A DNA stretch of 15,595 nucleotides, taken from contig RDOE01000073.1 in NCBI GenBank assembly GCA_011364975.1, forward strand, positions 1-15,595, given 5' to 3'. Under the pieces are notes generated by a model. The model saw nothing but the letters and a program-made list of their open reading frames with translations, had not been told where the DNA came from and ran no database searches. Origin of the DNA: Promethearchaeota archaeon. GTDB taxonomy: Archaea; Asgardarchaeota; Lokiarchaeia; Sigyniarchaeales; SOKP01. The position numbers and the translations under genes were made by a program. This document shows, one piece after another, positions 276-15,595 of the stretch. Position 1 is the first letter of the stretch. Every line of letters starts with the position of its first letter.

Positions 276-1202
276 ATGTCTTATAGAGACCGCTTACGAT
301 CTGCGAAAGTTAGTTCAATGGAAGAGACAAGTTGCTCAGATCAATGTTGTGATAACCCTTCTGTCGAATCAAGAGATGGTGATGTCGTTTGTTTAAACTG
401 TGGAATGATTCAAAGCCGTAATTTGGTTGGGAATGAGCGCCGTGCGTATACTGTAGAAGAAGTAAACAAGCGTCGCCGAACTGAACCACGATGGCGTGAA
501 TTTGGACCACGAACCATGTTACCAAATTCGAAAATCGATTCAAAAGGGAGATTGATTAATGCAAAAGGAAAAACCCTTTTCTCTAGATTATCAAAGATTC
601 AAAATTCATTAATTTCAAGCATCGAGAGAAACTTCTGGGAAGCAAAACCAAAGTTGAAAATGTTAACTTCAAAGATGAACATTCCTGAATACATTAAAGA
701 GACTGCATGGAAAATCTATAGTGTTGTAGCGAGAAAGAAATTGACCATGGGGAGGTCAATTGATGGTTTTATAGCTGCTTCATTATATGCTGCTATTCGG
801 GTACACGAATTTCCACGATTACTTGAAGAAGTATGCGATGCTTCTATGACTCCTCGAAGAACAGTCCACAGAAGCTTAGGCATGGTGGTAAAGGAAGTTT
901 TACCTGAGTTAAACCTCAGATATAAACCGATTACGGCAGAACAATTAGTATTTCGATTTGGTAATGATTTAGGATTACCAATGGATGTTCAAAAGAAAGC
1001 AATTAATATGCTTACCGAAGCCTCAAAAAACGGATTATTACGAACAGGTAAGGATCCGAAGGGTTTAGCCGCCAGTGTTATTTATATGGCAGCCAAAGCA
1101 AGCAACTGTCGCAAGACTCAAGCGGAAGTCTCGGAAATCGCCAAGGTTACCGAAGTCACCCTTAGAAGTCGCTCTAAACAAATTAAAAGCAAATTAGCAT
1201 AA
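276..1202 (+). CDS. tfb: Archaeal transcription initiation factor B (TFB/TFIIB family)
   Basis: N-terminal Zn ribbon (CCDNP...VVCLNCG), two cyclin-like repeats (GRSIDGFIAASLYAAIR...PRLLEEV; GKDPKGLAASVIY) and a C-terminal BRE-binding HTH (TQAEVSEIAKVTEVTLRSRSKQI). SD-like GTGA at 266-269. Confidence 0.95.
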   Translation: MSYRDRLRSAKVSSMEETSCSDQCCDNPSVESRDGDVVCLNCGMIQSRNLVGNERRAYTVEEVNKRRRTEPRWREFGPRTMLPNSKIDSKGRLINAKGKTLFSRLSKIQNSLISSIERNFWEAKPKLKMLTSKMNIPEYIKETAWKIYSVVARKKLTMGRSIDGFIAASLYAAIRVHEFPRLLEEVCDASMTPRRTVHRSLGMVVKEVLPELNLRYKPITAEQLVFRFGNDLGLPMDVQKKAINMLTEASKNGLLRTGKDPKGLAASVIYMAAKASNCRKTQAEVSEIAKVTEVTLRSRSKQIKSKLA

Positions 1203-1355: not shown

Positions 1356-2579
1356 ATGGATCCAATTCAAATTTCTATGTTTATTATCTCTCTAGTTATC
1401 GGATATATCCTTGGAACCATTAATCCGGGATATCTTATTGGAAGGATGAAAGGGATTGATATTCGTCAAGTAGGCACCAAAAATCCTGGAACTTCTAATG
1501 TATGGCATACATTAGGCAAGAAATATGGTATTTTAACTGCAACGTATGACATTTTTAAAAGTTTAATCGCTTGTATTATTGCAATCTATGCATTGGGATT
1601 AAATTATTTTTTTGCTCAATTTAGTGGGATAGTTGCAATAATTGGTCATTGTTTTCCATTTTATCTTGGATTTCGGGGAGGAAAAGGAGTAGCATCAGCT
1701 ATCGGGATGTTACCTTATTATGTTTCAATGTATATGTCTTCTACTGTACCATTCGACTTAACTATGATCTATCTTGTAATATTTTTGTTAATAATTGCTT
1801 TATTGTTCATTTATATTACACATTTGCTCAGTATGTTGGCTTGGATTATGTTTCCAATTATGGGGTTTGCGTCTTTTATATTATATCCTGGAAATGCTTT
1901 TAACATCTTTTTCGTTATTATCCTGTCATATTTAGTTGGATTTGTAACATATAGCGCAGTAATTAATAAGAAATTCCCCTTAGAAGGAAAAATTTTTAAA
2001 GCAGATTGGATTCGGATGGGTTTGCGTCTATTGACTATATTTTTCCTCGTATTTTATGACCTTTTCGACAAATCAACTGCCTTGGTGATTATCATTATTT
2101 TTGGGGCACTTTTTATTTCAATAGATCTATTTAGGATTATAAAAGGAAAAGAAGATGATGAAAAACCACCCGAATCCAGGGGGCTATATCGTAAAGGGGA
2201 AACTAAGAAATTTTCTTCGATTAGTATCTATGTAGTAGCTTTTTTTATGTCTATTCTCCTATTTCCTAGAGAGATTGCTTTTAGTGCTACTGTTTATCTC
2301 ATTTTCGGTGATATTTTTGGTAAAATCTTTGGGTTAGGATTTGGAAAACACAAACTACTCAATAAAACCGTTGAAGGAACTTTAGCGTATGCAGGATGCA
2401 TGTGTTTATCGGGGTATATACTATTTATGCTCTTAGATATCTCTCCGATAATTCTTATAATAGGAGGAATCGCAGCACCTATTACAGAATTATTGTCGTT
2501 GGAAATGAATGATAATTTTACAGTGTCATTAATAAGCGGAACGGTTATGATGTATACTGCTTTCTTAATGGGAATTTAA
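1356..2579 (+). CDS. PlsY-like glycerol-3-phosphate acyltransferase fused to a CTP-dependent lipid (diacylglycerol/polyprenol) kinase domain, paralog 1
   Basis: PlsY signatures GYILGTINPGY, DIRQVGTKNPGTSN, YDIFK and GHCFPFYLGFRGGKGVA in aa ~1-205. Kinase signatures FGDIFGKIFGLGFGKHK, KTVEGTLA and NDNFTV in aa ~218-407. Hydrophobic throughout. SD-like GTGAT at 1348-1352. Confidence 0.85.
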   Translation: MDPIQISMFIISLVIGYILGTINPGYLIGRMKGIDIRQVGTKNPGTSNVWHTLGKKYGILTATYDIFKSLIACIIAIYALGLNYFFAQFSGIVAIIGHCFPFYLGFRGGKGVASAIGMLPYYVSMYMSSTVPFDLTMIYLVIFLLIIALLFIYITHLLSMLAWIMFPIMGFASFILYPGNAFNIFFVIILSYLVGFVTYSAVINKKFPLEGKIFKADWIRMGLRLLTIFFLVFYDLFDKSTALVIIIIFGALFISIDLFRIIKGKEDDEKPPESRGLYRKGETKKFSSISIYVVAFFMSILLFPREIAFSATVYLIFGDIFGKIFGLGFGKHKLLNKTVEGTLAYAGCMCLSGYILFMLLDISPIILIIGGIAAPITELLSLEMNDNFTVSLISGTVMMYTAFLMGI

Positions 2580-2593
2580 AATCTTTAATATCC

Positions 2594-2622
2594 TTTTTTT
2601 TATTTATTTTAATCTTTATTTT
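2594..2622 (+). terminator. Probable oligo(T) terminator after paralog 1
   Basis: T8 at 2594-2601 plus further T-tracts just after the stop codon. Confidence 0.45.
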
Positions 2623-2879
2623 TCTATAAAGTATGCGTTACATTAAAATATAGACAAAAATTTAATGCAGGAAATTATATTTAAGGTACTTAAAATATAA
2701 AAAGTCACATTTCCGGCTTAAACTAATTAAAGGTTAAAAATTAAGTTTAATAAGTAAATTATTTTTGTCTCTTTATTTGGTATACCTAAATGTTTAAAAA
2801 TTACATTAACTAAACTTTAAATGTATGTCTAATACTATAATATTTTGAAATACAATGCTGAAGATGGTTAGGAAGTTAA

Positions 2880-4085
2880 ATGCAACCTTTTGAGATATTT
2901 ATAACAATTTTATGTATACTTATTGGATATATTATAGGCTCAGTAAACCCCGCCTACTTTTTTGGAAAGTATAAGGGGATAAACCTTAGAGAAGTAGGTA
3001 CAAAAAACCTTGGAACAGCAAATACATATTGGACTTTAGGTTTTAGGTATGCGGCACCTACTGCGTTTTATGATACGTTTAAAAGTTTATTTGTAATTTT
3101 AATTGCACTGTTACTAGGAGTAAACCTTTTTTTTGCCCATATCTGTGGATTAATGACAATTATAGGGCACATATTTCCTTTTTATTTAAGATTTAGAGGA
3201 GGACAAGGAGTAGCAGCTGCTACAGGAATGTTACTCTATTATTTATTGAATTATTTTATTTTAAATTTTTTTTATTTCTTCTTTATGTTTTATTTGATAT
3301 TAATCGTAATTATATTTACTTATATCACAAGAGCAGGTAATTTATTAAGTCCGTTAGTACTTCCCCTTTTAGGTTATTCTGTTTGGGTTACTTTTCCTGG
3401 AAATATATTTAATCTCTTCTTCACGATAATTCTTGCACATATAACAGGGATTGGTACCTATAACGTGATTAAGCGTCGAATGGTAAAAATAGAAGATGAG
3501 AATTTTCGAACTCATTGGTGGCGAGTTGCAGCACGTCCATTTGCTACTCTTTTTCTAGTATTTTATGCATTTCAACCACAAACAAACACTTTATTTTTTA
3601 TTGGTGTGATTTCCTTATTTTTTATAATCTTTGATATTTATCGCTTTATTCATAAACAAGCGGACGAATTGATAACTACTAAAGTAAAAGCACTATTAAG
3701 AAAGAATGAAATGAAGAAATTTTCTTCTATGACTATTTTCTTAGTTGCCCTGTTTATTACCATTTTGCTTTTTAGAAAAGAAGTAGCTATCGTATCCTCA
3801 GTATTTTTAATATTTGGAGATTCATTTGGAAAAGTATTTGGTTTAGCTTATGGGCGGCATAAATTACACGATAAATCATTAGAAGGAACACTTGCGTATG
3901 CTGGCAGTGTGCTAATTATGGGATATATTTTGTATACTACAATCCCAATTTCATTACCCGTCCTCATCTTAGGAGGAATTTCTGCTCCAGTAGTTGAATT
4001 TTTCTCCATGGGTGTTAATGACAATTTAACAGTACCTTTAATTACGGGGTCAATTATGACGGTTGCCCTTATCACAGGACTATGA
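2880..4085 (+). CDS. PlsY-like acyltransferase / CTP-dependent lipid kinase fusion, paralog 2
   Basis: GYIIGSVNPAY, NLREVGTKNLGTAN, YDTFK and GHIFPFYLRFRGGQGVA; C-terminal LLRKNE, FGDSFGKVFGLAYGRHK, KSLEGTLA and NDNLTVP. Confidence 0.85.
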   Translation: MQPFEIFITILCILIGYIIGSVNPAYFFGKYKGINLREVGTKNLGTANTYWTLGFRYAAPTAFYDTFKSLFVILIALLLGVNLFFAHICGLMTIIGHIFPFYLRFRGGQGVAAATGMLLYYLLNYFILNFFYFFFMFYLILIVIIFTYITRAGNLLSPLVLPLLGYSVWVTFPGNIFNLFFTIILAHITGIGTYNVIKRRMVKIEDENFRTHWWRVAARPFATLFLVFYAFQPQTNTLFFIGVISLFFIIFDIYRFIHKQADELITTKVKALLRKNEMKKFSSMTIFLVALFITILLFRKEVAIVSSVFLIFGDSFGKVFGLAYGRHKLHDKSLEGTLAYAGSVLIMGYILYTTIPISLPVLILGGISAPVVEFFSMGVNDNLTVPLITGSIMTVALITGL

Positions 4086-4096
4086 TTAAAATCAAT

Positions 4097-4119
4097 CTTT
4101 TCTTCATTCTATTTTTTTT
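4097..4119 (+). terminator. Probable oligo(T) terminator after paralog 2
   Basis: Pyrimidine tract ending in T8 at 4112-4119. Confidence 0.4.
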
Positions 4120-4183
4120 ATTACAATTATCTTTAAATTATAAAAATAAGATTAAATTTGTTAACCCTATATAATTTGCAGTT

Positions 4184-4984
4184 GTGTCGTACATTGAGAA
4201 GAAATACAAAGAAAAGATTTCAGAGGTATTTAAAGATTTAGACCTCTTGGATAAAGATATTTTGGAATTATTTCAAGAAAAATCTATAAAAAAATCTGAT
4301 AAAATTGCTAAATTATGTTCCCTATGTACGAAGAATGTAAACTTAATTCTTAAAAAGTATTATCCTGAGATTAAGGAGATTAACGATAAACTCCAGATCA
4401 AATCTGTTTTAAAATTTTATTTTGATCTAATCGATAAGATAACAGATTTTATTAGAAATGTTGAAAATTTCACCCAGCTTGATGAAAGATATTATGATAA
4501 TATGATAAAATTTCTAAGAGAGAAAGAGGAGCTAATTTCTGGTAAATATAAAGAATTATCCCGTCGTGAATTAACCATGTTTTATGATAAAACTACACGC
4601 GATAACCTCGAAAAAATATTAGAAATGAAACTAAAAAGTAAAAATAGAGAATTTTTTACATTTGGTCCTTTAGAAGAGGAAATAAAGAAGATCGCAAGGA
4701 TTAATGGTGCCGATCAAATTCAATTTTTCAGATATAGCGCTATTTTAAAAGATTTAGATTTAATAGCTAATCCAAAAACAATAATCAATTATTCTATACA
4801 TTCTGATGATGAGAGAAAATTAAAACAAATTGGAACCGCGGTCAAATCATATTTAATATCAAAAGGCTATGACGCAATTATATTAATCGTAGAATTATCA
4901 GATATTGATTTAGAGAGAGAAATATTGACAGGGAGTATCATTACTAATGCAAATCTATTTTACGATGAAAATGTCAATGGATAG
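4184..4984 (+). CDS. Hypothetical soluble protein: helical N-terminal region plus a C-terminal region resembling a reduced QueG/reductive-dehalogenase-like domain without Fe-S motifs
   Basis: 266-aa ORF with GTG start and a natural K/E/I/L-rich composition. C-terminal motifs LEEEIKKIARINGAD, PKTII, YLISKGYDA and GSIITNANL. The domain assignment is by eye only. Confidence 0.75.
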   Translation: MSYIEKKYKEKISEVFKDLDLLDKDILELFQEKSIKKSDKIAKLCSLCTKNVNLILKKYYPEIKEINDKLQIKSVLKFYFDLIDKITDFIRNVENFTQLDERYYDNMIKFLREKEELISGKYKELSRRELTMFYDKTTRDNLEKILEMKLKSKNREFFTFGPLEEEIKKIARINGADQIQFFRYSAILKDLDLIANPKTIINYSIHSDDERKLKQIGTAVKSYLISKGYDAIILIVELSDIDLEREILTGSIITNANLFYDENVNG

Positions 4985-5166
4985 CTTCTAAAATGTAATT
5001 GTTTTTTTGTATCATTAGGAATAGAGTTTTTATAAAAATTAGATATAATTTCTCTCTTAATTTTTAAGGTTTTTTCATGTATTCATTAAAATTTGGATGT
5101 TTAAAAGTTATATTTATATAAATTTGAAAACCTAATTTATTAAATACTAGATATTTATTTTAAAAA

Positions 5167-5172
5167 GAGGTG
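5167..5172 (+). promoter_or_regulatory. Shine-Dalgarno sequence for paralog 3
   Basis: GAGGTG 5 nt upstream of the TTG at 5178. The resulting N-terminus (MNPFEI) aligns with those of paralogs 1 and 2 (MDPIQI, MQPFEI). Confidence 0.75.
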
Positions 5173-5177
5173 TTAAT

Positions 5178-6401
5178 TTGAATCCATTTGAAATCTCTTT
5201 ATTTATTATAAGTTTAATTATAGGTTATTTAATTGGTACAATCAATCCTGGATACATTTTCGGAAGGATAGTGAAGAAGATTGATTTGAGAGAAGTTGGG
5301 TCAAAAAATGCCGGGACTTCAAATACTTATAAGGTATTAGGAATTAAATATGCGGTACCCACTGCTCTTTACGATATATTTAAAGCCGTTATTGCGGTGA
5401 TTATAGCTTTATTGATGGGTTTAGATGCTTTTTGGGCCCAATTTAGCGGGATCATGACTATAATAGGTCATATATTTCCTTTTTACCTTAATTTTCGAGG
5501 TGGAAGAGGAGTTGCTGCCGCAATAGGGATGTGGTTGTTTTACGTGGGTTTGTATTGCTATTTAAATTTAATATTTATTTTTATGGTGGGGTATTTTGTA
5601 TTACTAGCAACAATTTTCTCTTATATTACTAGGCGTTTTAATTTAATACCTGTCACCTCTTTCTCCCTGATGATTTTCTTTGTATTTATTCATTATTCTG
5701 CATTTAATTTCATTTATAACATCTGGTTTAGTTTAATCGTGGCACATATCATTGTATTTACGATGATTGATTTTTTCACTGAAGTTGAGATTAAAATTGA
5801 TGATGAAAGCTTCACCGGCCATAAATGGCGCATAGTTTTACGATTTGGAACGATTATTTTTCTATTTTTCTATGAATTTATTTCATTAGAGATATCCTTA
5901 TTATCTATTAGTCTATTTGCTCTGTTTTTTATCGTTCTTGACCTCCGAAGGTTAATAAGGGAATATGGAAAAGATTCCCCAGAAGAAAAATCATCCAAAA
6001 CAGAAGTTATGTATAGAGAGAAGGAAAAGAAGAAGTTTTCTTCAATTAGTATTTACATTGTTGCCTACTTTTTTACTTTAGTTATATTTCCTAAACCAAT
6101 TGCTATTACTGCTGCAACTTTCTTAATTTTTGGAGACACTTCCAGTAAATTTTTCGGATTAGCATTTGGAAAGCATAAAATATTAAATAAAACTCTCGAA
6201 GGAACCCTCGCATATGTAGGAGTTGTATTAATTAGTGGATATCTTCTTTACGAATTATTAGATATATCGCCTATAGTTATTATTTTAGGTGGAATATCCG
6301 CACCCATAACTGAATTATTAACCTTAGATATGAACGATAATTTCACCGTTCCAATTATAAGTGGAGCTATCATGTTTGCAGCTTTCTCTGTGGGTCTATA
6401 A
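5178..6401 (+). CDS. PlsY-like acyltransferase / CTP-dependent lipid kinase fusion, paralog 3
   Basis: GYLIGTINPGY, DLREVGSKNAGTSN, YDIFK and GHIFPFYLNFRGGRGVA; C-terminal FGDTSSKFFGLAFGKHK, KTLEGTLA and NDNFTVP. Confidence 0.85.
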   Translation: MNPFEISLFIISLIIGYLIGTINPGYIFGRIVKKIDLREVGSKNAGTSNTYKVLGIKYAVPTALYDIFKAVIAVIIALLMGLDAFWAQFSGIMTIIGHIFPFYLNFRGGRGVAAAIGMWLFYVGLYCYLNLIFIFMVGYFVLLATIFSYITRRFNLIPVTSFSLMIFFVFIHYSAFNFIYNIWFSLIVAHIIVFTMIDFFTEVEIKIDDESFTGHKWRIVLRFGTIIFLFFYEFISLEISLLSISLFALFFIVLDLRRLIREYGKDSPEEKSSKTEVMYREKEKKKFSSISIYIVAYFFTLVIFPKPIAITAATFLIFGDTSSKFFGLAFGKHKILNKTLEGTLAYVGVVLISGYLLYELLDISPIVIILGGISAPITELLTLDMNDNFTVPIISGAIMFAAFSVGL

Positions 6402-6509: not shown

Positions 6510-7985
6510 ATGGATGATAACAAATCTGAAGTTCCTCTAACAGGTATTACAGTAAAGAAGGAAGAAGATTTTTCAGAATGGTACACTGAGTTATTAAATA
6601 AAGCAGAATTAGCAGATATTCGATATAATGTTAAAGGGTTCATTGTATATAGAGAATGGGCAACAATTACAATAAGAAAAATGTTTAAAAAAACAGAAGA
6701 CCTACTAGAAAAAAAGGGGCACCTTCCCTTAACTATGCCTTCACTAATTCCTGAATCTAACTTTTTATTAGAAGCGCAACACGTCGAAGGGTTTGCTCCT
6801 GAAGTATTTTGGGTTACCGAAGCGGGTAGTTCGGGTAAATTACCAGAACGGTTAGCGTTACGTCCTACAAGTGAGACAGCACTTTATAAGATGTATGCGT
6901 TATGGTTAAGAAGCTATAAGGATCTGCCTTTTAAGAGATACTTATCTTGCCAAGTTTGGAGGTATGAAGGAAAAATGACGAGACCATTTTTTAGAGGTCG
7001 GGAATTTCATTGGATTGAATCTCATAATGTTTTCGCCACAATGGAAGATGCAATGAAACAGGTTAAAGAAGATATGGATTCAACCTACCAGATTCTTCAA
7101 GATGAGTGTTGTATTCCAATTATATTTTTTCAAAGACCAGAATGGGACAAATTTGCAGGAGCCGTTCATACCTATGCAGCAGATGCATTAATGGGTTCTG
7201 GGAAAGTATTACAGCTACCTTCGACTCATCTTTTAGGCCAAAATTTTGCTAAACCATTTCAGGTTAAATTTGTTGACAATGATGGAGAAGAGAAGTATGC
7301 TTATCAGACTTGTTATGGACCAGCTCAAAGCAGAAATTATGGTGCAATGATTGCTTATCTTGGGGATGATAAAGGTTTAGTGTTACCATTCGATTTAGCT
7401 CCAGTTCAAATCGTTATAGTTCCAATCTTTTTCAAAGGTAAAGAGAAATTAGTTTTGGATAAGGCAAGCGAAGTTTTTAAGCAATTAGAGGAGAAATATG
7501 TCGTTAAGATCGATGATCGGGACGAATCAGTTGGTAGCAAATTCTATTATTGGGAACTACGCGGAGTGCCTATTCGAATAGAAATTGGACCAAAAGATAT
7601 TCAAAAGAAACAGTTTGTGGTCGTTAAAAGACATGATGGGCAAAAATTTATTATAAAAGAGACGGAATTAGTAAAAAGAATTGATGAAATTGCTCAAAAC
7701 TATACTAATGAAATCAAAAAGAAATCCTTAGTGGATTTTGAATCTCAAATTGAATTAGTGTATGAAAAAGACTCCGCAATTCAGGCCATTAACAACGGAA
7801 AAATCGTCGCATGTGGCTTCTGCTCTATAGATTTTGATGGTGAAAAATGCGCAGAAGTAGTTGAAAAGGAAATTGGTGCGTTTGTTAGAGGTAAAAGAGT
7901 AGATGAGGAAAAGCATGAATTTGCCAACTGTTTGATTTGTGGGAAACCTGCTGGATGTACTGTCTACATCGCTAGAGCATATTAA
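6510..7985 (+). CDS. proS: Proline--tRNA ligase, archaeal/eukaryote type
   Basis: DFSEWY, HVEGFAPEVFWVT, LALRPTSET, motif 2 (WRYEGKMTRPFFRGREF), anticodon-binding domain (APVQIVIVPI...GVPIRIEIGPKD), C-terminal Zn-binding CLICG and terminal ARAY. Confidence 0.97.
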   Translation: MDDNKSEVPLTGITVKKEEDFSEWYTELLNKAELADIRYNVKGFIVYREWATITIRKMFKKTEDLLEKKGHLPLTMPSLIPESNFLLEAQHVEGFAPEVFWVTEAGSSGKLPERLALRPTSETALYKMYALWLRSYKDLPFKRYLSCQVWRYEGKMTRPFFRGREFHWIESHNVFATMEDAMKQVKEDMDSTYQILQDECCIPIIFFQRPEWDKFAGAVHTYAADALMGSGKVLQLPSTHLLGQNFAKPFQVKFVDNDGEEKYAYQTCYGPAQSRNYGAMIAYLGDDKGLVLPFDLAPVQIVIVPIFFKGKEKLVLDKASEVFKQLEEKYVVKIDDRDESVGSKFYYWELRGVPIRIEIGPKDIQKKQFVVVKRHDGQKFIIKETELVKRIDEIAQNYTNEIKKKSLVDFESQIELVYEKDSAIQAINNGKIVACGFCSIDFDGEKCAEVVEKEIGAFVRGKRVDEEKHEFANCLICGKPAGCTVYIARAY

Positions 7986-8634: not shown

Positions 8635-8928
8635 TTATCGTTCTGTGTAACCTATAAATCCCGCGATTAAAATTAATATTCCACCTGCTAAGCTACTAAA
8701 TATTATTGCGATTATTCCTATGCCAACATACAAGAGCCAATTCATTGGTACTGGATTACCTGGTCTTATTACACTAAATAAAACTATAACTGCTAAAACA
8801 ATAGATACTATAAGGATCGCAACTCTAGAATAATCATAATTTCTCTCATTAAATCCTAGTAAAGTCTCAATTAATGTAATTGCACCCCCAATCCCAGCCA
8901 ATAATCTCATTAAATCTTCTTCTCTCAT
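8635..8928 (-). CDS. Small hypothetical membrane protein (3-4 TM helices)
   Basis: 97 aa with Gly-rich hydrophobic segments (AGIGGAITLI; LAGGILILIAG). GGGA lies upstream of the ATG, and a T7 tract on the minus strand (8614-8620) follows the stop. Confidence 0.75.
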   Translation of the reverse strand: MREEDLMRLLAGIGGAITLIETLLGFNERNYDYSRVAILIVSIVLAVIVLFSVIRPGNPVPMNWLLYVGIGIIAIIFSSLAGGILILIAGFIGYTER

Positions 8929-9205: not shown

Positions 9206-9754
9206 GTGATAAAAATAGTCCTATCTAAATCTTCATTTTACATGATTGATGATTGTTTTATTAATTGGGATAAGGGAACTGGAGGTTATAATACGCCACC
9301 AATCATTGGATGTGTAATTTCTGATAAAGATGGGAAAAATATCGCTACTTTTGAGATATTTCATAATGCCTTAAATCATTTTATATTAGGAGAAGAAAGT
9401 AAAAATAATTCGTTTAATTCTGATTTAGTTCCTATGTATACGAGTGCAATAGAACTGCTCTCAGAGGAATTGCATATTGATAATTTACCTTATATCGATA
9501 TAAAGGGTTCCAATATTAAATTACATATCATATTCAATTTTGAACATTTTACGGTTACTCTTTTCTTGCATCCGTCTGTTGATTTTGAGAAGTTAGAAAA
9601 AGTGACAAGGAATTACCTTTCAAACTTATTTGAAGAATTTAATGATGAATTTCAAGGATCAAAAGAAATAAGTTCAAAAGAATTTATATATTTTCTTGAG
9701 CGAGTTGGTTGGAACTGGTTGTTGAATCTAAATTATGAATATGTATCATTTTAG
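9206..9754 (+). CDS. Hypothetical protein with a longin/roadblock (profilin-like) fold; start uncertain
   Basis: Pattern beta-beta (IIGCVISDKDGKNIATF), helix (DLVPMYTSAIELLSEEL), three strands (YIDIKG, IKLHIIF, FTVTLFL), then helices (LEKVTRNYLSNLFEEF...). An alternative in-frame ATG is at 9242. Confidence 0.65.
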   Translation: MIKIVLSKSSFYMIDDCFINWDKGTGGYNTPPIIGCVISDKDGKNIATFEIFHNALNHFILGEESKNNSFNSDLVPMYTSAIELLSEELHIDNLPYIDIKGSNIKLHIIFNFEHFTVTLFLHPSVDFEKLEKVTRNYLSNLFEEFNDEFQGSKEISSKEFIYFLERVGWNWLLNLNYEYVSF

Positions 9755-9917: not shown

Positions 9918-10553
9918 TTGATTATGGGAATTAGGGGATACTCCTATGAACGAGTCATAGGAAGTCATATTATATTAATAGGGACTATTGTAGGGCTTTT
10001 GGTTTTAATTGCATCCATTATTCTCTATATATCTTGGGACCCTACATTCAGCTTTATGACACATTGGATTAGTAATTTAGGAATAGGTCCTAATGGATCG
10101 AGTAGTTTATTTAATGGAGGAATGATTTATGCAGGTATTATGATTTGGTTTTATAGTCTTATATTAGCTCGATATCTTCATAAAAATGGCGCATTAAAAT
10201 TGTTAATTATTATTTGTTTCGGATGTGGATTAGTGTTAGGTGTTGGACTTCTTCTTACAGGAATTTTTCCAATGGAATTGGTCTTTGGTATGCATAATAT
10301 TGCTGCAGGATTATTTTTCTATGGAGGCATGTTCAGTTGTATGTTTTATGGAATTACTGCTTACATCACTCCAAACATCTCTAAATTTTACGCAGCATCG
10401 GGTTTCTCAGCAGCGATGATTTTTCTCCCTTATCTTATACTAAATTTGTTGCCAATTTATATAGGGATCATAAAGTTAGCAGAATGGGCTGTATTTTTTG
10501 TGGTTCCTTTCTGGGTCATGTCTCAGGGCTTTTTAATGTTACTTGGTAAGTGA
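9918..10553 (+). CDS. DUF998 / Frag1-like multi-pass membrane protein (start possibly ATG at 9924)
   Basis: About 6 TM segments. Motifs HWISNLG, FNGGMI, GIFP, HNIAAGLFF and EW are typical of DUF998 proteins. Confidence 0.7.
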   Translation: MIMGIRGYSYERVIGSHIILIGTIVGLLVLIASIILYISWDPTFSFMTHWISNLGIGPNGSSSLFNGGMIYAGIMIWFYSLILARYLHKNGALKLLIIICFGCGLVLGVGLLLTGIFPMELVFGMHNIAAGLFFYGGMFSCMFYGITAYITPNISKFYAASGFSAAMIFLPYLILNLLPIYIGIIKLAEWAVFFVVPFWVMSQGFLMLLGK

Positions 10554-11548: not shown

Positions 11549-13027
11549 TTAAGATTTTTCTTTATCTTTAGCTAACTTTTCAAGTTTGCTTGGCATTCCT
11601 TCATCATGAGAAACTGATTCTGGAAGCTTCCTCATGATCTCTTTGATATTTATTCCTCTTTTTTGAAGAGTTCCTTTTCTTATCCAATATACAATTGCAC
11701 CTATACCTGTGAATGGAAAGACAATTATAGCAATAATTGCACCTGCATCTGGATCAGTAAATAGAAGTAACAAAAATAACAAAGAAAATATCGCACCAAG
11801 ACTTCCAATAATTTTTAATGAAGTGGGAGAGGGTTTAAAACCTGCATTTTCATGCCATTCTGGAAACTTTTTTTTAAAGATGATTGCACCGATACAAAGT
11901 GGGATTTGAATAATTAACACCACTACTCCAACAATTGCACTCAAAAGTGCAGCTGCTATTTCAATTGTTATACTTGAATCAAGTGCTGTCAATAGAGGTA
12001 TAAATGTTATTAGGAAAATCATTCCCACAACCAATAGAAGTGTTAGAGCATGAATGGGTGTCTTTTGTTTTTCATGAACTTTAGAAAATCTTTTTGGAAA
12101 GAGAAATTCTCGGCTGATCATTAAGATATCTCTAGAATAAGCCATATAGGATGGATGTATGGTAGAGGCTATAGCAATAGCAATAAGGATAGCCATAAAA
12201 ACAACCATACCTTGGGGAAGTAAGCTCCCAGTTAAAATAATCTCTATAACTGTTCCAACTGGAGCATTCCATGGTTGAATTCCTGCAACCATTAAAGCTT
12301 GTAGAGTATATAATGTAATTAATAGAATAAAACTAATAAATAAGGCTCTTGGGATATTTTTTCTGGGATTTTTAACCTCCCCAGCAACATCTAATATTAA
12401 AGTAAACCCCACATAGGAAAAGAAAAAAACCAAAGCTGCAAATAGCACGGGACTTAAACCTAAAGGGAAAAAGTTAGTAAAGTTTGAAGGATTAAATACT
12501 GGGATTGCTGCTACAATAAATATCACCATTACTAAAATATCACCTAAAAGAGTAATAATCAATTCGACTAATCCCGAGAATTCGATTTTAATCCAATTTA
12601 GAAAGTAAAAAGCAACCAATACTAATAACCCAATAACTATTACAAATATCATTTCCATTTCAGCAGGAATTAGGAAAGCATCAGCCAAGAATACACCAAA
12701 AGTAGTCGCTAAATATGCTAATGTAGACCCTACCGCTAAAATAATTAGCCATACTGCCATAAAGCCTCCAAATCCACCTAAAATTCTGCTGCTTATGACA
12801 TAAGAACCCCCAGCTACAGGAAAAGCTGACCCCAGATAAGCTGAAATATAAGCGACAAAGATTGCCGGTATAACGGCAATTAAATATGCGAGAAACATAG
12901 CTGGTCCAGTCCTAGAAAGATAAGCAGCCGGATTCACCCATATTGAAGCTCCAATTACCATCCCTACAATGATGAAAATAGCCATCGGTAAATTTAAACC
13001 ACGTTTTAATTCTTTATCTTCAACCAT
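11549..13027 (-). CDS. APC-superfamily amino acid permease
   Basis: About 12 TM. ELKRGL, GMVIGASI, FPVAGGSY, FFSYVGF, AGEVKNPRKNIPRAL and FPKRFSKVH..QKTP. Convergent with the MBL gene, with 6 nt between the stops. Confidence 0.93.
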   Translation of the reverse strand: MVEDKELKRGLNLPMAIFIIVGMVIGASIWVNPAAYLSRTGPAMFLAYLIAVIPAIFVAYISAYLGSAFPVAGGSYVISSRILGGFGGFMAVWLIILAVGSTLAYLATTFGVFLADAFLIPAEMEMIFVIVIGLLVLVAFYFLNWIKIEFSGLVELIITLLGDILVMVIFIVAAIPVFNPSNFTNFFPLGLSPVLFAALVFFFSYVGFTLILDVAGEVKNPRKNIPRALFISFILLITLYTLQALMVAGIQPWNAPVGTVIEIILTGSLLPQGMVVFMAILIAIAIASTIHPSYMAYSRDILMISREFLFPKRFSKVHEKQKTPIHALTLLLVVGMIFLITFIPLLTALDSSITIEIAAALLSAIVGVVVLIIQIPLCIGAIIFKKKFPEWHENAGFKPSPTSLKIIGSLGAIFSLLFLLLLFTDPDAGAIIAIIVFPFTGIGAIVYWIRKGTLQKRGINIKEIMRKLPESVSHDEGMPSKLEKLAKDKEKS

Positions 13028-13176: not shown

Positions 13177-14376
13177 TCAGAATCGTTTGTTTAATCTCTC
13201 AAGTAAGTTCTTCTTTCGTTGAAGTTTCTTTTTTAATTGATTTAAAGCGTCTTCGACAGCAAATTCATAGAGGGATATGCCTTTATTATTCGCTCCATTT
13301 ATCACCTCAAAAGTTTTATCAGTTATTTTTGATTTAATGAATTCGAAGATTTCATCAGCATTTTTAGCTACTTTATTAACCAAGATTGCTAAAACTTCCC
13401 CCGCATTAGCAACAAAATCAGGAAAAGCAATAATTTCTTTCTCTTTTAAAGTATCCACGATGCCCTTTTCATATGGGATATTAGCAGCGGGAACAATTGC
13501 GATAGCATCAATCCTATCTACATTATGTTTATTAATTACATCAGGACGTGCTCCTGGAATTATGAAGTCTGTTCTATAATCTTTAGAAATTTCAAAGAGC
13601 TTTTCTTTTTCGAGGTGTAGCACATTTTTACTTTCAAATTGATTAACTAAATCATCACCATAACACTGTTTAAGTTTTAGTAATTCTTGAATATCAAATC
13701 CATCATCATCAAAAATTGCGCCTTTGATGGTGGATAACCCGGTCAATATAAAGCCCAGCTCATCTAAAGCTATAGCTAAAGCAGTACCTACTTTCCCAAA
13801 TCCTTCTAAAATAACTTTGGGTTTTTTATCGGTATCTCTTTGAATTGGAGAAATCTTGCTGAGATTATGATAAATTACCTCTAAGCAGTTTACTACCCCA
13901 TATCCAGTAAATAACTCTTCCACAGGAATTTCATGCTTTTTTAATCCGATTGCTTTAGGAGCAAGATTAGGAATTCCCATGATGTTAAATATTTTAAGTA
14001 AATCACGGTCATCTGTACCCATATCGGGTCCAGGATAATAAACATCATTTTTAACATACGTTTCAATCGCATTAGCAAAACCAGTTAGTAAGATATTCTT
14101 ACTTTCTGTATCGAGAGGATCTCCCCAAATTCCTGCCTTAGCACCACCTACTTTGAGCCTATAAGCACAAAATTTCAAGGACATGGCTCGAGCTAATCGT
14201 ATCATTTCATCTAAAGAGATATCCGGTGCAAGTCTTACACCACCAGCAGGTATGCCATTTACTGTATTATCTATAACTAATACCGCGTTAAGATTAATAG
14301 AGGGATTTTTAAGAATAATTATCTCTTCTGGCCCAATATCGTCTAAGAGAGAATAATCTTTTATATTGAAATTCAT
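13177..14376 (-). CDS. Glu/Leu/Phe/Val dehydrogenase family protein, probably not glutamate-specific
   Basis: GGVR, AMSLK (K68), GGAKA (K80), GPDMGT, TGYGV, Rossmann GFGKVG, AANIP and PDFVANAG. Confidence 0.9.
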   Translation of the reverse strand: MNFNIKDYSLLDDIGPEEIIILKNPSINLNAVLVIDNTVNGIPAGGVRLAPDISLDEMIRLARAMSLKFCAYRLKVGGAKAGIWGDPLDTESKNILLTGFANAIETYVKNDVYYPGPDMGTDDRDLLKIFNIMGIPNLAPKAIGLKKHEIPVEELFTGYGVVNCLEVIYHNLSKISPIQRDTDKKPKVILEGFGKVGTALAIALDELGFILTGLSTIKGAIFDDDGFDIQELLKLKQCYGDDLVNQFESKNVLHLEKEKLFEISKDYRTDFIIPGARPDVINKHNVDRIDAIAIVPAANIPYEKGIVDTLKEKEIIAFPDFVANAGEVLAILVNKVAKNADEIFEFIKSKITDKTFEVINGANNKGISLYEFAVEDALNQLKKKLQRKKNLLERLNKRF

Positions 14377-14522
14377 CTTAATGTCTATTTGATCAACTTT
14401 AAAATTGTAATATAGTTAATTCTTAATTAAGTTAATATTAAATCTTAATCATATTTTTGATTATTATGTAAATAAGTCGATTTAATTACAAAATTTTTTT
14501 AATATCATTAATTTTGATTCTT

Positions 14523-15595
14523 ATGGATAATAAACAGCCAATATTATTTGAAGCCTATCCAAATTTGGAAGGCAAGGTCCCTTGGATTCCAATTCTAACA
14601 AATATTCCTACTAATATTGATCGTTTAACAGAATTAGAGAAGCATTTTGGGATAAATAATGGAAGAATTTATATTAAACGAGATGATAAAAATCATCACA
14701 TTTATGGTGGGAATAAACTTAGAAAATTTGAGTTTATTTTTGGGAAAATTTTAAAAAATAAAAAGAAGGCAGTGGTGACTAATGGTGGAATTGGGACTAA
14801 TCATGGGTTAGCGTGTGCGATTGTCTGTAAACAAATGAAACCCCCTCTTAAATGCCAATTATATCTTTTTAACCAACCAATAACATGGCATGTTCAAAGA
14901 TCATTACTGTTATTGAATTATTTTGGTGCTAAAATCCATCTTGGAAAGGGAGATATCGGTACTTTCGTTAAGTTTCTATTTTTTAAACTACTACATCCTA
15001 AATACTTCCTGATGTTTCCGGGAGGATCCCCTTTATTTGGAATAGGCTCACCATTAGGTACAGTTGGTTTTGTTAACGCAGCTTTTGAATTGAAAAAGCA
15101 AATAGGGGAAGGAATAATACCTGAACCAGATATAATATTTGTAGCAGGTGGTTCAGTAGGTACAGCTGCAGGACTTATTGCTGGTTGTAAGTTAGCGAAG
15201 TTAAAAACAAAAATACATGTTGTTGCTGTGTATACTGATTTAACCTCAAATCCATCCTCTGTTAAGAAGAATTCTAATAAAGTTATTAAGTATCTAAGAA
15301 AGAAAGACAAATTCCTTCCAAATATAGAAATAACAGAATCAGATTTTGAATTTATTACCGGATATTTGGGAACGGGTTATGGTACTAAAACAAAAAGAGG
15401 ACAAAATGCTGTTGATAAAGTATATGAGATAGAAGGAAGCAGAAGAGATTTTAAACTTGAAACAACTTACACCGGAAAAACAATGGCTGCAATGTTTGAT
15501 TACTTGAACCAAGAAGAAAATAAAAACAAAATTACCTTATTTTGGAACACCTATAACTCAAATGATTTAGATGAGTATCTTAGAGAAACTAATTT
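14523..15595 (+). CDS. D-cysteine desulfhydrase / ACC deaminase family PLP enzyme (3' end outside the window; absent from the ORF track)
   Basis: Manual translation from ATG 14523: MDNKQPILFEAYP...YIKRDD...YGGNKLRKFEF (PLP Lys at 14715-14717)...GGIGTNHG...FPGGS...GFVNAAFEL...IFVAGGSVGTAAGL...GTGYG...LETTYTGK...LFWNTYN. No stop codon before 15595. Confidence 0.9.
   Translation, partial: MDNKQPILFEAYPNLEGKVPWIPILTNIPTNIDRLTELEKHFGINNGRIYIKRDDKNHHIYGGNKLRKFEFIFGKILKNKKKAVVTNGGIGTNHGLACAIVCKQMKPPLKCQLYLFNQPITWHVQRSLLLLNYFGAKIHLGKGDIGTFVKFLFFKLLHPKYFLMFPGGSPLFGIGSPLGTVGFVNAAFELKKQIGEGIIPEPDIIFVAGGSVGTAAGLIAGCKLAKLKTKIHVVAVYTDLTSNPSSVKKNSNKVIKYLRKKDKFLPNIEITESDFEFITGYLGTGYGTKTKRGQNAVDKVYEIEGSRRDFKLETTYTGKTMAAMFDYLNQEENKNKITLFWNTYNSNDLDEYLRETN

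Follow-up and report, generated by a model that had tools for sequence, protein, structure and literature searches.

PlsY of Aquifex aeolicus (PDB 5XJ5-5XJ9; PF02660, TIGR00023) is a seven-helix membrane acyltransferase. In this enzyme, acyl-phosphate is bound by H92, T41, N37, and the backbone of the GGxG loop (K104-A107, the "phosphate hole"), while glycerol 3-phosphate (G3P) is held by a phosphate clamp of S35, R45, K104, and N180 together with S142 and H177 (PMC5700162). Three genes whose products join a PlsY-like half to a second, kinase-type membrane domain are encoded on contig RDOE01000073.1 of the Promethearchaeota assembly GCA_011364975.1. The window analyzed here is this entire contig (15,595 bp, C176) of a 3.74-Mb genome of 200 contigs, with a completeness of 99.25% and a contamination of 6.09%. 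The fusion proteins have in common with Aquifex PlsY the seven-helix fold and the phosphate hole (H92, GGxG, N42). They differ from it in being about twice as long, owing to the second enzyme domain, in scoring below the PlsY equivalog level, in lacking the G3P clamp of S35, R45, K104, and H177 (N180 is uncertain), and in having no PlsX or Fak partner found in the genome. We tentatively read them, with somewhat less than even confidence, as coupled activate-and-transfer enzymes, in which the kinase half would make a lipid phosphate and the PlsY half would transfer it to a non-canonical acceptor.

Two sources of acyl-phosphate are known, PlsX and FakA/FakB; both are soluble or peripheral and use acyl-ACP or ATP. 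The C-terminal half of the fusion (C-half) would do the same job, supplying acyl-phosphate to a PlsY-type domain, but the likeness would be one of function only: it has no sequence or fold relation to PlsX, FakA, or FakB, and it is built into the membrane and would draw on CTP. Closer in sequence are the CTP-dependent kinases Sec59/DOLK, VTE5, and Dgk1, with a catalytic membrane domain of about 200 amino acids (aa) and what we take to be their common block, GD...K...K(S/T)xEG, which resembles that of the C-half. Unlike in these kinases, the window copies stay under the Pfam cut-off, and a PlsY fold takes the place of the variable helical domain as N-terminal partner; phosphorylation of a carboxylate would be a novelty for the family. 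Dolichol kinases and Dgk1 belong to the CTP_transf_1 family, in which a conserved Asp is essential (PMC2459266, PMC11542857). CdsA of Thermotoga maritima (PDB 4Q2E/4Q2G) was the only solved structure found by the C-half model and shares with it the first conserved block; however, the C-half has no second-half CdsA signature, its Foldseek scores are weak, and it places about seven helices in 200 aa compared with about 265 aa in CdsA.

Homologs of plsY and plsC have been noted in Asgard archaea as possible ester-lipid genes (PMC6737245, PMC6431249, PMC9385802, PMC13400652), and the function of the Asgard PlsY homologs is stated to remain "to be elucidated" (PMC9385802). No mention of a fused second domain was found in the portions of this literature searched, which did not include supplementary alignments and trees. 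Judged from their sequences, the "PlsY homologs" of Asgard archaea considered here are two-domain fusions with a rewired G3P clamp.

The first-pass annotation of the window had described three co-oriented two-domain paralogs of about 400 aa between the genes tfb and proS. The open reading frame (ORF) coordinates were reproduced exactly (Table 1), and PF02660 was found in all three copies, the match spanning approximately aa 15-194 in each and exceeding the gathering score of 24.1 bits. The kinase-type motif FGD..K.FG..FGKHK...K(S/T).EG...NDN was likewise present in every copy, and no plsX, plsC, acp, or fak gene was found among the window ORFs. The term "array", however, holds for the number of genes and not for their contiguity, since a 266-aa gene separates copies 2 and 3. 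The TTG start of copy 3 lines up with the starts of copies 1 and 2. Copy 2, in which all conserved motifs of the kinase half are present, gave the strongest match within its genome to profile A3, built on a 30-member alignment of archaeal and bacterial C-halves. Full-length identity to copy 1 was 45% and 51% for the two other copies; among the window copies, identity was 46-50% in the N-terminal half (N-half) and 44-51% in the C-half. Because both halves are equally diverged, the copies arose by whole-gene duplication.

The identity of the N-half as a PlsY, proposed in the first-pass annotation, was confirmed at the level of fold. Its sole solved relative by sequence was Aquifex PlsY (5xj5; E 1e-24, or 3.9e-27 with a profile). 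The AlphaFold2 (AF2) model of copy 1 (pLDDT 80.1, pTM 0.77) has seven helices in this half, as in the seven-transmembrane-helix PlsY fold. Foldseek hits of the full-length model at E ≤ 0.001 were five PlsY chains alone, with template-modeling (TM) scores of 0.64-0.69, and the N-half matched 5xj7 at E 6e-6 (target-normalized TM 0.69). Scores against the PlsY equivalog TIGR00023 were 86.0, 85.6, and 107.0 bits, all under the cut-off of 137.2. Residues were surveyed in 92 fusion proteins aligned with ten canonical PlsYs from the same bacterial genomes and are given in Aquifex numbering. In the acyl-phosphate pocket, H92 and the glycines G102, G103, and G105 were present in 92/92 fusions, N42 in 91, and N37 in 78, with I or V at the latter position in one Asgard paralog group. 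A40-T41 of Aquifex PlsY corresponds to T40-x in the fusions: the T41 position is S or T in 49/92, and S, A, and S in window copies 1, 2, and 3, respectively. Copy 1 retains both the equivalent of H92 (H98) and the GGxG loop. On this comparison, the acyl-phosphate pocket is retained in the fusion family.

The G3P clamp presents another picture. S35, R45, and K104 did not occur jointly in any of the 92 fusions, none had a His aligned at H177, and the H..N motif was found in six. In the canonical PlsYs of the same genomes, S35, R45, H177, and N180 were present in 10/10 and K104 in 9/10. Taken singly, the S35 position of the fusions is T (56), S (14), or D (13), the R45 position K (27), R (25), or H (22), and the K104 position mostly Q (67), with K in nine proteins. 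At S35/R45/K104, the window copies have T/H/K (T41, H51, and K110 of copy 1), T/W/Q (copy 2), and S/K/R (copy 3). We regard the clamp as rewired and not erased, because the R45 position is commonly basic, K or R has newly appeared at position 36, and N180 may persist. Given this rewiring and the shortfall against TIGR00023, the N-half is not a canonical G3P acyltransferase, and an ordinary G3P route to ester lipids would not be the best reading. Thus, from the first-pass description of this half as PlsY, the fold stood, while the canonical G3P function did not.

In the tree of the 92 fusions, the 56 Asgard rows formed one clade (support 99) with five bacterial rows as its sister. Copy 1 falls into ortholog group A and copy 3 into group B; the two groups join with a support of 100, and each has members in three related genomes (L007, L008, L009); copy 2 (group C) was placed among a commoner Lokiarchaeial type with a weak support of 80. 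Within the same genus, three or four matches were found in 4/28 genomes, the present one included, and 0-2 in the others. The triplication is a lineage-specific expansion. The K104 position is K in group A, R in group B (K in one member), and Q in group C; the R45 position is H in group A (N in one member), K in group B, and W, K, or H in group C. These group-specific states are largely conserved among orthologs in the three related genomes. Since the clamp residues differ in this ortholog-conserved manner, the three-paralog pattern, which is a new observation here, resembles subfunctionalization at the acceptor site and suggests three acceptor specificities. With their differing clamp residues, the paralogs form a ready-made series in which specificity could be studied experimentally.

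The C-half was assigned by profile comparisons. Among the members of A3, 13/30 matched PF01148 at E ≤ 0.1 (best E 6.7e-6), and one stand-alone relative, P0215, cleared the Pfam cut-off with 24.3 bits; in the window, copy 3 alone had any match (E 0.0027, 18 bits compared with a cut-off of 24). Alignment of A3 by hhalign with 11 bacterial CdsAs gave a probability of 91.2% and E 9.8e-7 over 69 columns, confined to the GD..G..GR.K..KT.EG block. The second-half CdsA signature KR..G.KD..PGHGG.LDR.D, invariant in the 11 CdsAs, had no counterpart in the fusions, which read G..A...E....DDN.TVP at this place; the E...DDN tail is common to the fusions, their stand-alone relatives, and two proteins of about 360 aa from the same genome. 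The C-half is best regarded as a distant member of the CTP_transf_1 superfamily and not as a CdsA-type cytidylyltransferase, in keeping with the earlier description of a CTP-dependent kinase-type domain. It was placed in one subgroup with dolichol kinase, phytol kinase, and Dgk1 because it has no CdsA signature and because of the motif assumed above for these kinases, which were not among the aligned sequences.

No match of the C-half profile to PDB sequences was found at E ≤ 10, and the full-length profile found PlsY alone. The AF2 model of the copy 1 C-half (pLDDT 90.3) has seven helices; its top three Foldseek rows were CdsA, with weak values (E 0.18-0.30, probability 0.44-0.80, TM 0.22-0.39). 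The nearest ESM Atlas clusters, automatically named "phosphatidate cytidylyltransferase" (score 0.89), were treated as a lead only and not used. Of the C-half residues, numbered as in copy 1, R220, R224, G341, and N387 are kept in 92/92 fusions, E282, D319, E378, and D386 in 91/92, K323 in 90/92, and K337 in 85/92, and E340 lies within the same range of 85-92/92. The kinase half looks active, because these polar residues are near-invariant at an overall identity of about 30%. When helices are counted from the cytoplasmic end of PlsY, the conserved polar residues fall at cytoplasmic helix ends and loops, including a K/R-rich loop at 264-287; from the helix counts (7 + 7), we infer that both pockets would face the cytoplasm. 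A two-chain prediction of the N-half with the C-half scored 0.28 compared with a mark of 0.32, which is evidence neither way.

A scan of one genome per species gave 567 stretches encoding relatives, from which 79 loci were retained, and 79/79 contained an ORF of about 400 aa matching both halves. The architecture was thus found in both archaea and bacteria. Thirty-five fusion ORFs came from at least ten bacterial groups. According to the submitters' labels, the bacterial loci belong to WOR-3, Latescibacterota, Aminicenantes, Hydrothermota, KSB1, a PVC-group bacterium, Acetothermia, Thermotogae, Spirochaetaceae, "Eubacteriales", Clostridia, and Actinomycetota metagenome-assembled genomes (MAGs), as well as to Saccharibacteria, Berkelbacteria, and Nealsonbacteria; the archaeal loci belong to Asgard MAGs and one Thermoplasmatota. 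The first-pass annotation had allowed for the fusion being a widespread and already characterized bacterial family: it is widespread in bacteria, but, as far as the literature search shows, not characterized. Against representative proteins, the C-half profile matched 6158 sequences at E ≤ 1e-3 and 339 at E ≤ 1e-30, with lengths clustering at about 400 aa (fusions) and 186-224 aa (stand-alone). One protein, P0257 (431 aa), has the reversed order, with the kinase half at aa 31-208 and the PlsY half at aa 226-390. The occurrence of both halves at all 79 loci, the existence of the reversed P0257, and the equal divergence of the halves indicate that the fusion is conserved as a unit. In another relative, P0213 (570 aa), about 165 additional residues precede the PlsY half at the N terminus.

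Genes for lipid biosynthesis were searched in the window's own genome. Neither PlsX (PF02504) nor FakB/DegV (PF02645) was found, nor were the GpsA C-domain or any PF02660 protein beyond the three fusions. Searches for glycerol 1-phosphate (G1P) dehydrogenase and the GpsA N-domain returned weak, ambiguous matches of Rossmann or iron-dependent alcohol dehydrogenase (Fe-ADH) type. The archaeal ether-lipid genes GGGPS, CarS, and geranylgeranyl reductase were present, as were eight FGGY-family kinases. Therefore, the absence of plsX noted for the window extends to the whole genome; that of plsC does not, as three tandem PlsC-type (PF01553) matches are encoded at C159:6194-8130 (minus strand; loci L004-L006). 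Two of these lie in one 555-aa frame (a double-domain acyltransferase) and the third in a 253-aa frame. PlsC-type genes were found in 9/10 other Asgard genomes, and frames of 553-568 aa with two PF01553 matches in 7/10; since such double frames recur, the "Asgard PlsC" is atypical too.

The gene-content survey covered 30 other fusion-bearing genomes, some of them draft. PlsX was not found in 10 Asgard, 1 Thermoplasmatota, 5 CPR-size (candidate phyla radiation), 2 Spirochaetaceae, and 1 Hydrothermota genomes, and it was present in 11/11 remaining bacterial genomes. With the window's own genome included, PlsX and FakB/DegV were each found in 0/11 Asgard genomes, so that the epithet "self-contained" given in the first-pass annotation agrees with the gene content. 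In the five CPR-size genomes, one of which is a complete 0.64-Mb chromosome, PlsX, FakB/DegV, PlsC, and CdsA were each found in 0/5; as these genomes keep the fusion, it is independent of the rest of the phosphatidate pathway. In archaea and CPR bacteria with the fusion, there thus appears to be no known acyl-phosphate supplier. In 10/11 PlsX-containing bacteria, the fusion (110-125 bits) was accompanied by a canonical PlsY of approximately 200 aa (150-187 bits), the exception being G021; the fusion is therefore no replacement for PlsY where PlsY exists. All full-length PF02660 matches in the own and 10/10 other Asgard genomes are fusion-length, and the only further matches in the others were two short fragments (93 aa in G002; below the cut-off in G003). 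The complete Spirochaetaceae chromosome G027 encodes PlsC and CdsA without PlsX or DegV, and contains the fusion and a divergent short PlsY-like gene.

Several further relatives of either half were encountered in these genomes. PF01148 alone found nothing in the own genome, and the fusion C-half was considered as its sole dolichol-kinase-like domain; this was rejected, since profile A3 finds two proteins of about 360 aa and a 249-aa relative. The former (C54:50079-50600 and C125:25593-26144; loci L106 and L107) have a GD...KT.EG...DDN core preceded by some 170 aa of a different membrane region at the N terminus, and are the likelier candidates for the polyprenol/dolichol kinase of this archaeon. 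Similar kinase-type frames of 345-390 aa occur in 9/10 other Asgard genomes (none is listed for G006). The 249-aa membrane protein, a distant relative of the C-half (E 2e-6) with a weak resemblance to DUF92, is the third gene at C128:68476-71441 (locus L108), after GGGP synthase and a geranylgeranyl-reductase-like flavoprotein. A splitting of the fusion into neighboring genes was also considered and rejected, as 0/4 stand-alone C-domain genes (G011, G012, G021, G022) shared their contig with a PF02660 match. Several bacteria encode, in addition to canonical PlsY and the fusion, a third PlsY-like type, stand-alone and of about 200-230 aa and 120-141 bits (loci L096 and L098-L101, in G011-G013, G026, and G027); it, too, lacks the canonical H..N motif. 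At Berkelbacteria locus L102 (G025:C1:289000-291500), a PF02660 match at a canonical-like 162 bits lies in a 516-aa ORF (596-aa open frame), which may be another PlsY fusion.

According to the reading that we tentatively prefer, the fusion would be a membrane-embedded enzyme with some 14 helices, its two catalytic halves being coupled and both accessible from the cytoplasmic side. Most likely, the C-half would use CTP to phosphorylate a membrane lipid. The best guess for its substrate is a free fatty acid, and acyl-phosphate would be the likely product because nothing in the N-half is better conserved than the pocket for this ligand and no further source of it was found; the kinase half would then be a third acyl-phosphate route beside PlsX and FakAB. 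The N-half would pass this activated acyl group on to an acceptor hydroxyl, held differently from G3P in PlsY and probably belonging to a lipid, or to another polyol or phosphate head group. The enzyme would serve salvage or remodeling and not the committed step of bacterial-type phospholipid synthesis. In a more specific form, which we consider doubtful, a CTP-dependent fatty-acid kinase would hand acyl-phosphate within the membrane to the rewired PlsY in a self-sufficient two-step acylation, and the three paralogs would serve three acceptors, for example, ether-lipid intermediates or lysolipids.

Several points weigh against the activate-and-transfer reading. None of the three window C-halves reaches a Pfam cut-off, and the fold match of the C-half to CdsA is weak, with no Foldseek hit at E ≤ 0.001. 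Phosphorylation of a carboxylate is not known from any CTP_transf_1 family member. In the passages drawn on here, the papers on Dgk1 (PMC2459266) and dolichol kinase (PMC11542857) describe alcohol substrates only. In copy 2, the T41 position is occupied by Ala, and the T41A substitution cripples Aquifex PlsY (PMC5700162). On the acceptor side, 74/92 fusions still have K, R, or H at the R45 position, the S35 position is S or T in 70/92, a K or R is added at position 36 in 59/92, and N180 is Asn in 59/92 by one alignment but not by another; G3P or G1P may be bound by other means. Finally, the fusion may be the sole usable PlsY in some bacteria: G015 has PlsC and CdsA without PlsX or another PF02660 match, and G021 has PlsX yet the fusion alone as PlsY, although both genomes are draft and may be incomplete.

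The reading given in the first-pass annotation shares the supply of acyl-phosphate by the kinase half, but has the PlsY half acylate G3P or G1P to lysophosphatidic acid, to which PlsC would add the second chain, resulting in ester or hybrid lipids without PlsX. We regard it as unlikely. Bacterial PlsY takes both G1P and G3P (PMC13400652), and the basic residues at the R45 position and at position 36 could rebuild a phosphate grip; yet the three clamp residues are never found together, there is no His at H177, and in Aquifex PlsY the substitutions R45K, S35T, and all those tried at H177 cost most of the activity (PMC5700162). Concerning the acceptor supply, the eight FGGY kinases could include a G3P-making glycerol kinase, while the GpsA C-domain was not found in the genome. 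The use of the product is favored by the PlsC-type genes of the own genome (three matches) and of nine out of ten other Asgard genomes, and by G015 and G027, in which PlsC and CdsA are encoded with neither PlsX nor a canonical PlsY beside the fusion; against it, none of the five CPR-size genomes has a detectable PlsC or CdsA to use lysophosphatidate. The fusions are the only full-length PF02660 proteins in the Asgard genomes, but all three window copies remain under the PlsY equivalog cut-off, and ten of the eleven PlsX bacteria retain a canonical PlsY. A cultured Lokiarchaeon was reported to have archaeal lipids only (as cited in PMC13400652 and PMC9385802).

Alternatively, the fusion could be an ordinary lipid-alcohol kinase, acting on polyprenol/dolichol, phytol/geranylgeraniol, diacylglycerol, or archaeol, with a non-acylating PlsY-like half that stands in for the variable N-terminal structural domain of dolichol kinases or binds and hands on the lipid phosphate made by the kinase. 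This appears slightly less probable still. The characterized relatives Dgk1 (PMC2459266) and dolichol kinase (PMC11542857) phosphorylate lipid alcohols, and the variable, non-homologous N-terminal domains of dolichol kinases support the catalytic C-domain (PMC11542857). Stand-alone C-domain proteins of 186-224 aa exist, none of the four checked sharing a contig with PF02660. A scaffold would be compatible with the incomplete conservation of the carbonyl-binding T41 hydroxyl (49/92) and with I or V at N37 in one Asgard group, but H92, GGxG, and N42, kept in 91-92/92 fusions, go far beyond the needs of a scaffold. The two kinase-type proteins of about 360 aa and the DUF92-like gene beside GGGPS are the more obvious prenol kinases of this genome, and the reversed-order fusion argues for functional coupling of two activities.

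The C-half could also be a cytidylyltransferase of CdsA or CarS type, making a CDP-activated lipid from the product of the PlsY half or from another lipid phosphate. We consider this very improbable. CdsA is its only solved fold relative, occupying the top three Foldseek rows, and hhalign relates the two at 91% probability; that alignment, however, covers the first block alone (69 columns), the CdsA signature is replaced by the E...DDN tail, and the genome has its own CarS. That the copies are decaying or inactive, or a bacterial or chimeric mis-assembly, is hardly credible despite the bin contamination of 6.09%, considering the intact frames, the conserved residues of both halves in all three copies, the orthologs of each copy in related genomes, the conserved archaeal neighbors tfb and proS (27-34/80), and the even G+C content.

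Gene order was compared at 80 places (79 loci from the reference genomes and the window). Upstream of the fusions, tfb was found in 27/80; a gene of the type located at 4184-4984 in the window adjoined them in 34/80; and proS followed downstream in 29/80. The recurrent order is tfb, fusion(s), 4184-type gene, proS, and this synteny is a new observation here. The G+C content is uniform along the window (0.26-0.36). Because the order recurs and the G+C content is even, the contig is archaeal and non-chimeric, and the bacterial or chimeric origin that the first-pass annotation had considered as a counter-explanation was not borne out. The upstream neighbor scored 202.6 bits against NF001658, under the cut-off of 384. 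All features of the window are listed in Table 1.

Table 1. Features encoded in the window, with positions on the 15,595-bp contig.
Feature	Position	Strand	Properties
tfb (archaeal TFIIB), upstream neighbor	276-1202	+	PF00382 E 4.6e-35
Copy 1 (paralog group A), full ORF	1356-2579	+	407 aa, ATG start
Copy 1, PlsY-like half	1356-1970	+	aa 1-205; PF02660 E 3.6e-35, 121.9 bits
Copy 1, kinase-type half and stop codon	1971-2579	+	aa 206-407; member of alignment A3
Copy 2 (paralog group C), full ORF	2880-4085	+	401 aa, ATG start
Copy 2, PlsY-like half	2880-3488	+	PF02660 E 3.1e-28, 99.4 bits
Copy 2, kinase-type half and stop codon	3489-4085	+	profile A3 match E 3.8e-83
Unrelated 266-aa gene between copies 2 and 3	4184-4984	+	GTG start; without Pfam family
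Copy 3 (paralog group B), full ORF	5178-6401	+	407 aa, TTG start
Copy 3, PlsY-like half	5178-5804	+	PF02660 E 1e-33, 117.2 bits
Copy 3, kinase-type half and stop codon	5805-6401	+	profile A3 match E 1.6e-72
proS (archaeal/eukaryal-type class-II prolyl-tRNA synthetase), downstream neighbor	6510-7985	+	TIGR00408 466.1 bits, cut-off 437
ORF without family	8635-8928	-	
ORF without family	9206-9754	+	
DUF998 membrane protein	9918-10553		
Metallo-beta-lactamase-fold protein	10637-11542		
Amino-acid permease	11549-13027	-	
Glu/Leu-type dehydrogenase	13177-14376	-	
PLP-dependent enzyme	14514-15593		truncated by contig end

The product of the gene between copies 2 and 3 matched neither a Pfam nor an NCBIfam family, and no PDB relative was found. 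It is soluble and has 440 relatives at about 60% identity, all of them unnamed or "hypothetical" and, where organism names are given, exclusively from Asgard archaea. The gene is better conserved than the adjoining fusions; it was counted as a syntenic neighbor, not as a functional partner, and may just belong to an old gene order common with tfb and proS. An ESM Atlas match of its product (0.88, about 100 shared features) was kept as a lead only and not used.

Other neighbors recur elsewhere. At 15 Asgard loci, a 586-aa alpha/beta-hydrolase (BD-FAE/Abhydrolase_3, esterase-like) is encoded one to three genes upstream of the fusion, and at 14 a LarA-like gene in the same position (loci drawn from L011, L020, L022, L025-L028, L032-L036, and L038-L040); this hydrolase could conceivably release fatty acids. 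In Aminicenantes-type and "Eubacteriales"-labeled MAGs, gap, pgk, and tpiA follow the fusion at eight, six, and five loci, respectively (L054, L056, L058, L062-L065, L075), so that the fusion there adjoins the triose-phosphate steps feeding glycerol phosphate.

Within the phylum to which the window belongs, 301 genomes were sampled, the own genome included, and the fusion was called at E ≤ 1e-40. It was present in 40/301, all 40 in the family of the window (39/68 excluding the window genome), and at this threshold it was found in 0/232 genomes from 29 other families. This restriction to one family, a new observation here, means that the phylum names on the records overstate the archaeal spread of the fusion. 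MAGs labeled Hod-, Hermod-, Odin-, or Thorarchaeota (loci L013, L021, L024, L035, L038, L042, L045, L049) contain fusions near-identical to, and interleaved with, those of MAGs labeled Promethearchaeota, and the submitters' phylum labels on these MAGs look unreliable.

When the N-half tree was rooted with canonical PlsY, the Asgard clade fell inside a ladder of bacterial fusions, with supports of 75, 13, 98, 68, 86, 76, 5, 57, and 99, several of them weak. In the approximately unbiased (AU) test, a single clade of all bacterial fusions was not rejected (p 0.525), also a new observation here. With such supports and this p value, the phylogeny favors neither direction of transfer. A bacterial origin of the fusion is the more economical reading, because it occurs in many bacterial groups and, among archaea, in one Asgard family and one Thermoplasmatota.

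Should acyl-phosphate be the product of the kinase half, this would be new enzymology and would explain how a PlsY-type enzyme is fed without PlsX or Fak. If the self-sufficient two-step acylation is true, the Asgard archaeon and lipid-scavenging CPR bacteria would gain ester-linked or hybrid lipids without the classical bacterial pathway. The Asgard PlsY homologs have repeatedly been cited as a hint at a capacity for bacterial-type ester lipids in the archaeal ancestors of eukaryotes. The two-domain architecture, the rewired clamp, and the confinement to one family weaken this use, making the homologs weaker evidence for G3P ester membranes in Asgard archaea. The fusions also point to an undescribed activate-and-transfer enzyme common to Asgard archaea, many uncultured bacteria, and minimal CPR genomes.

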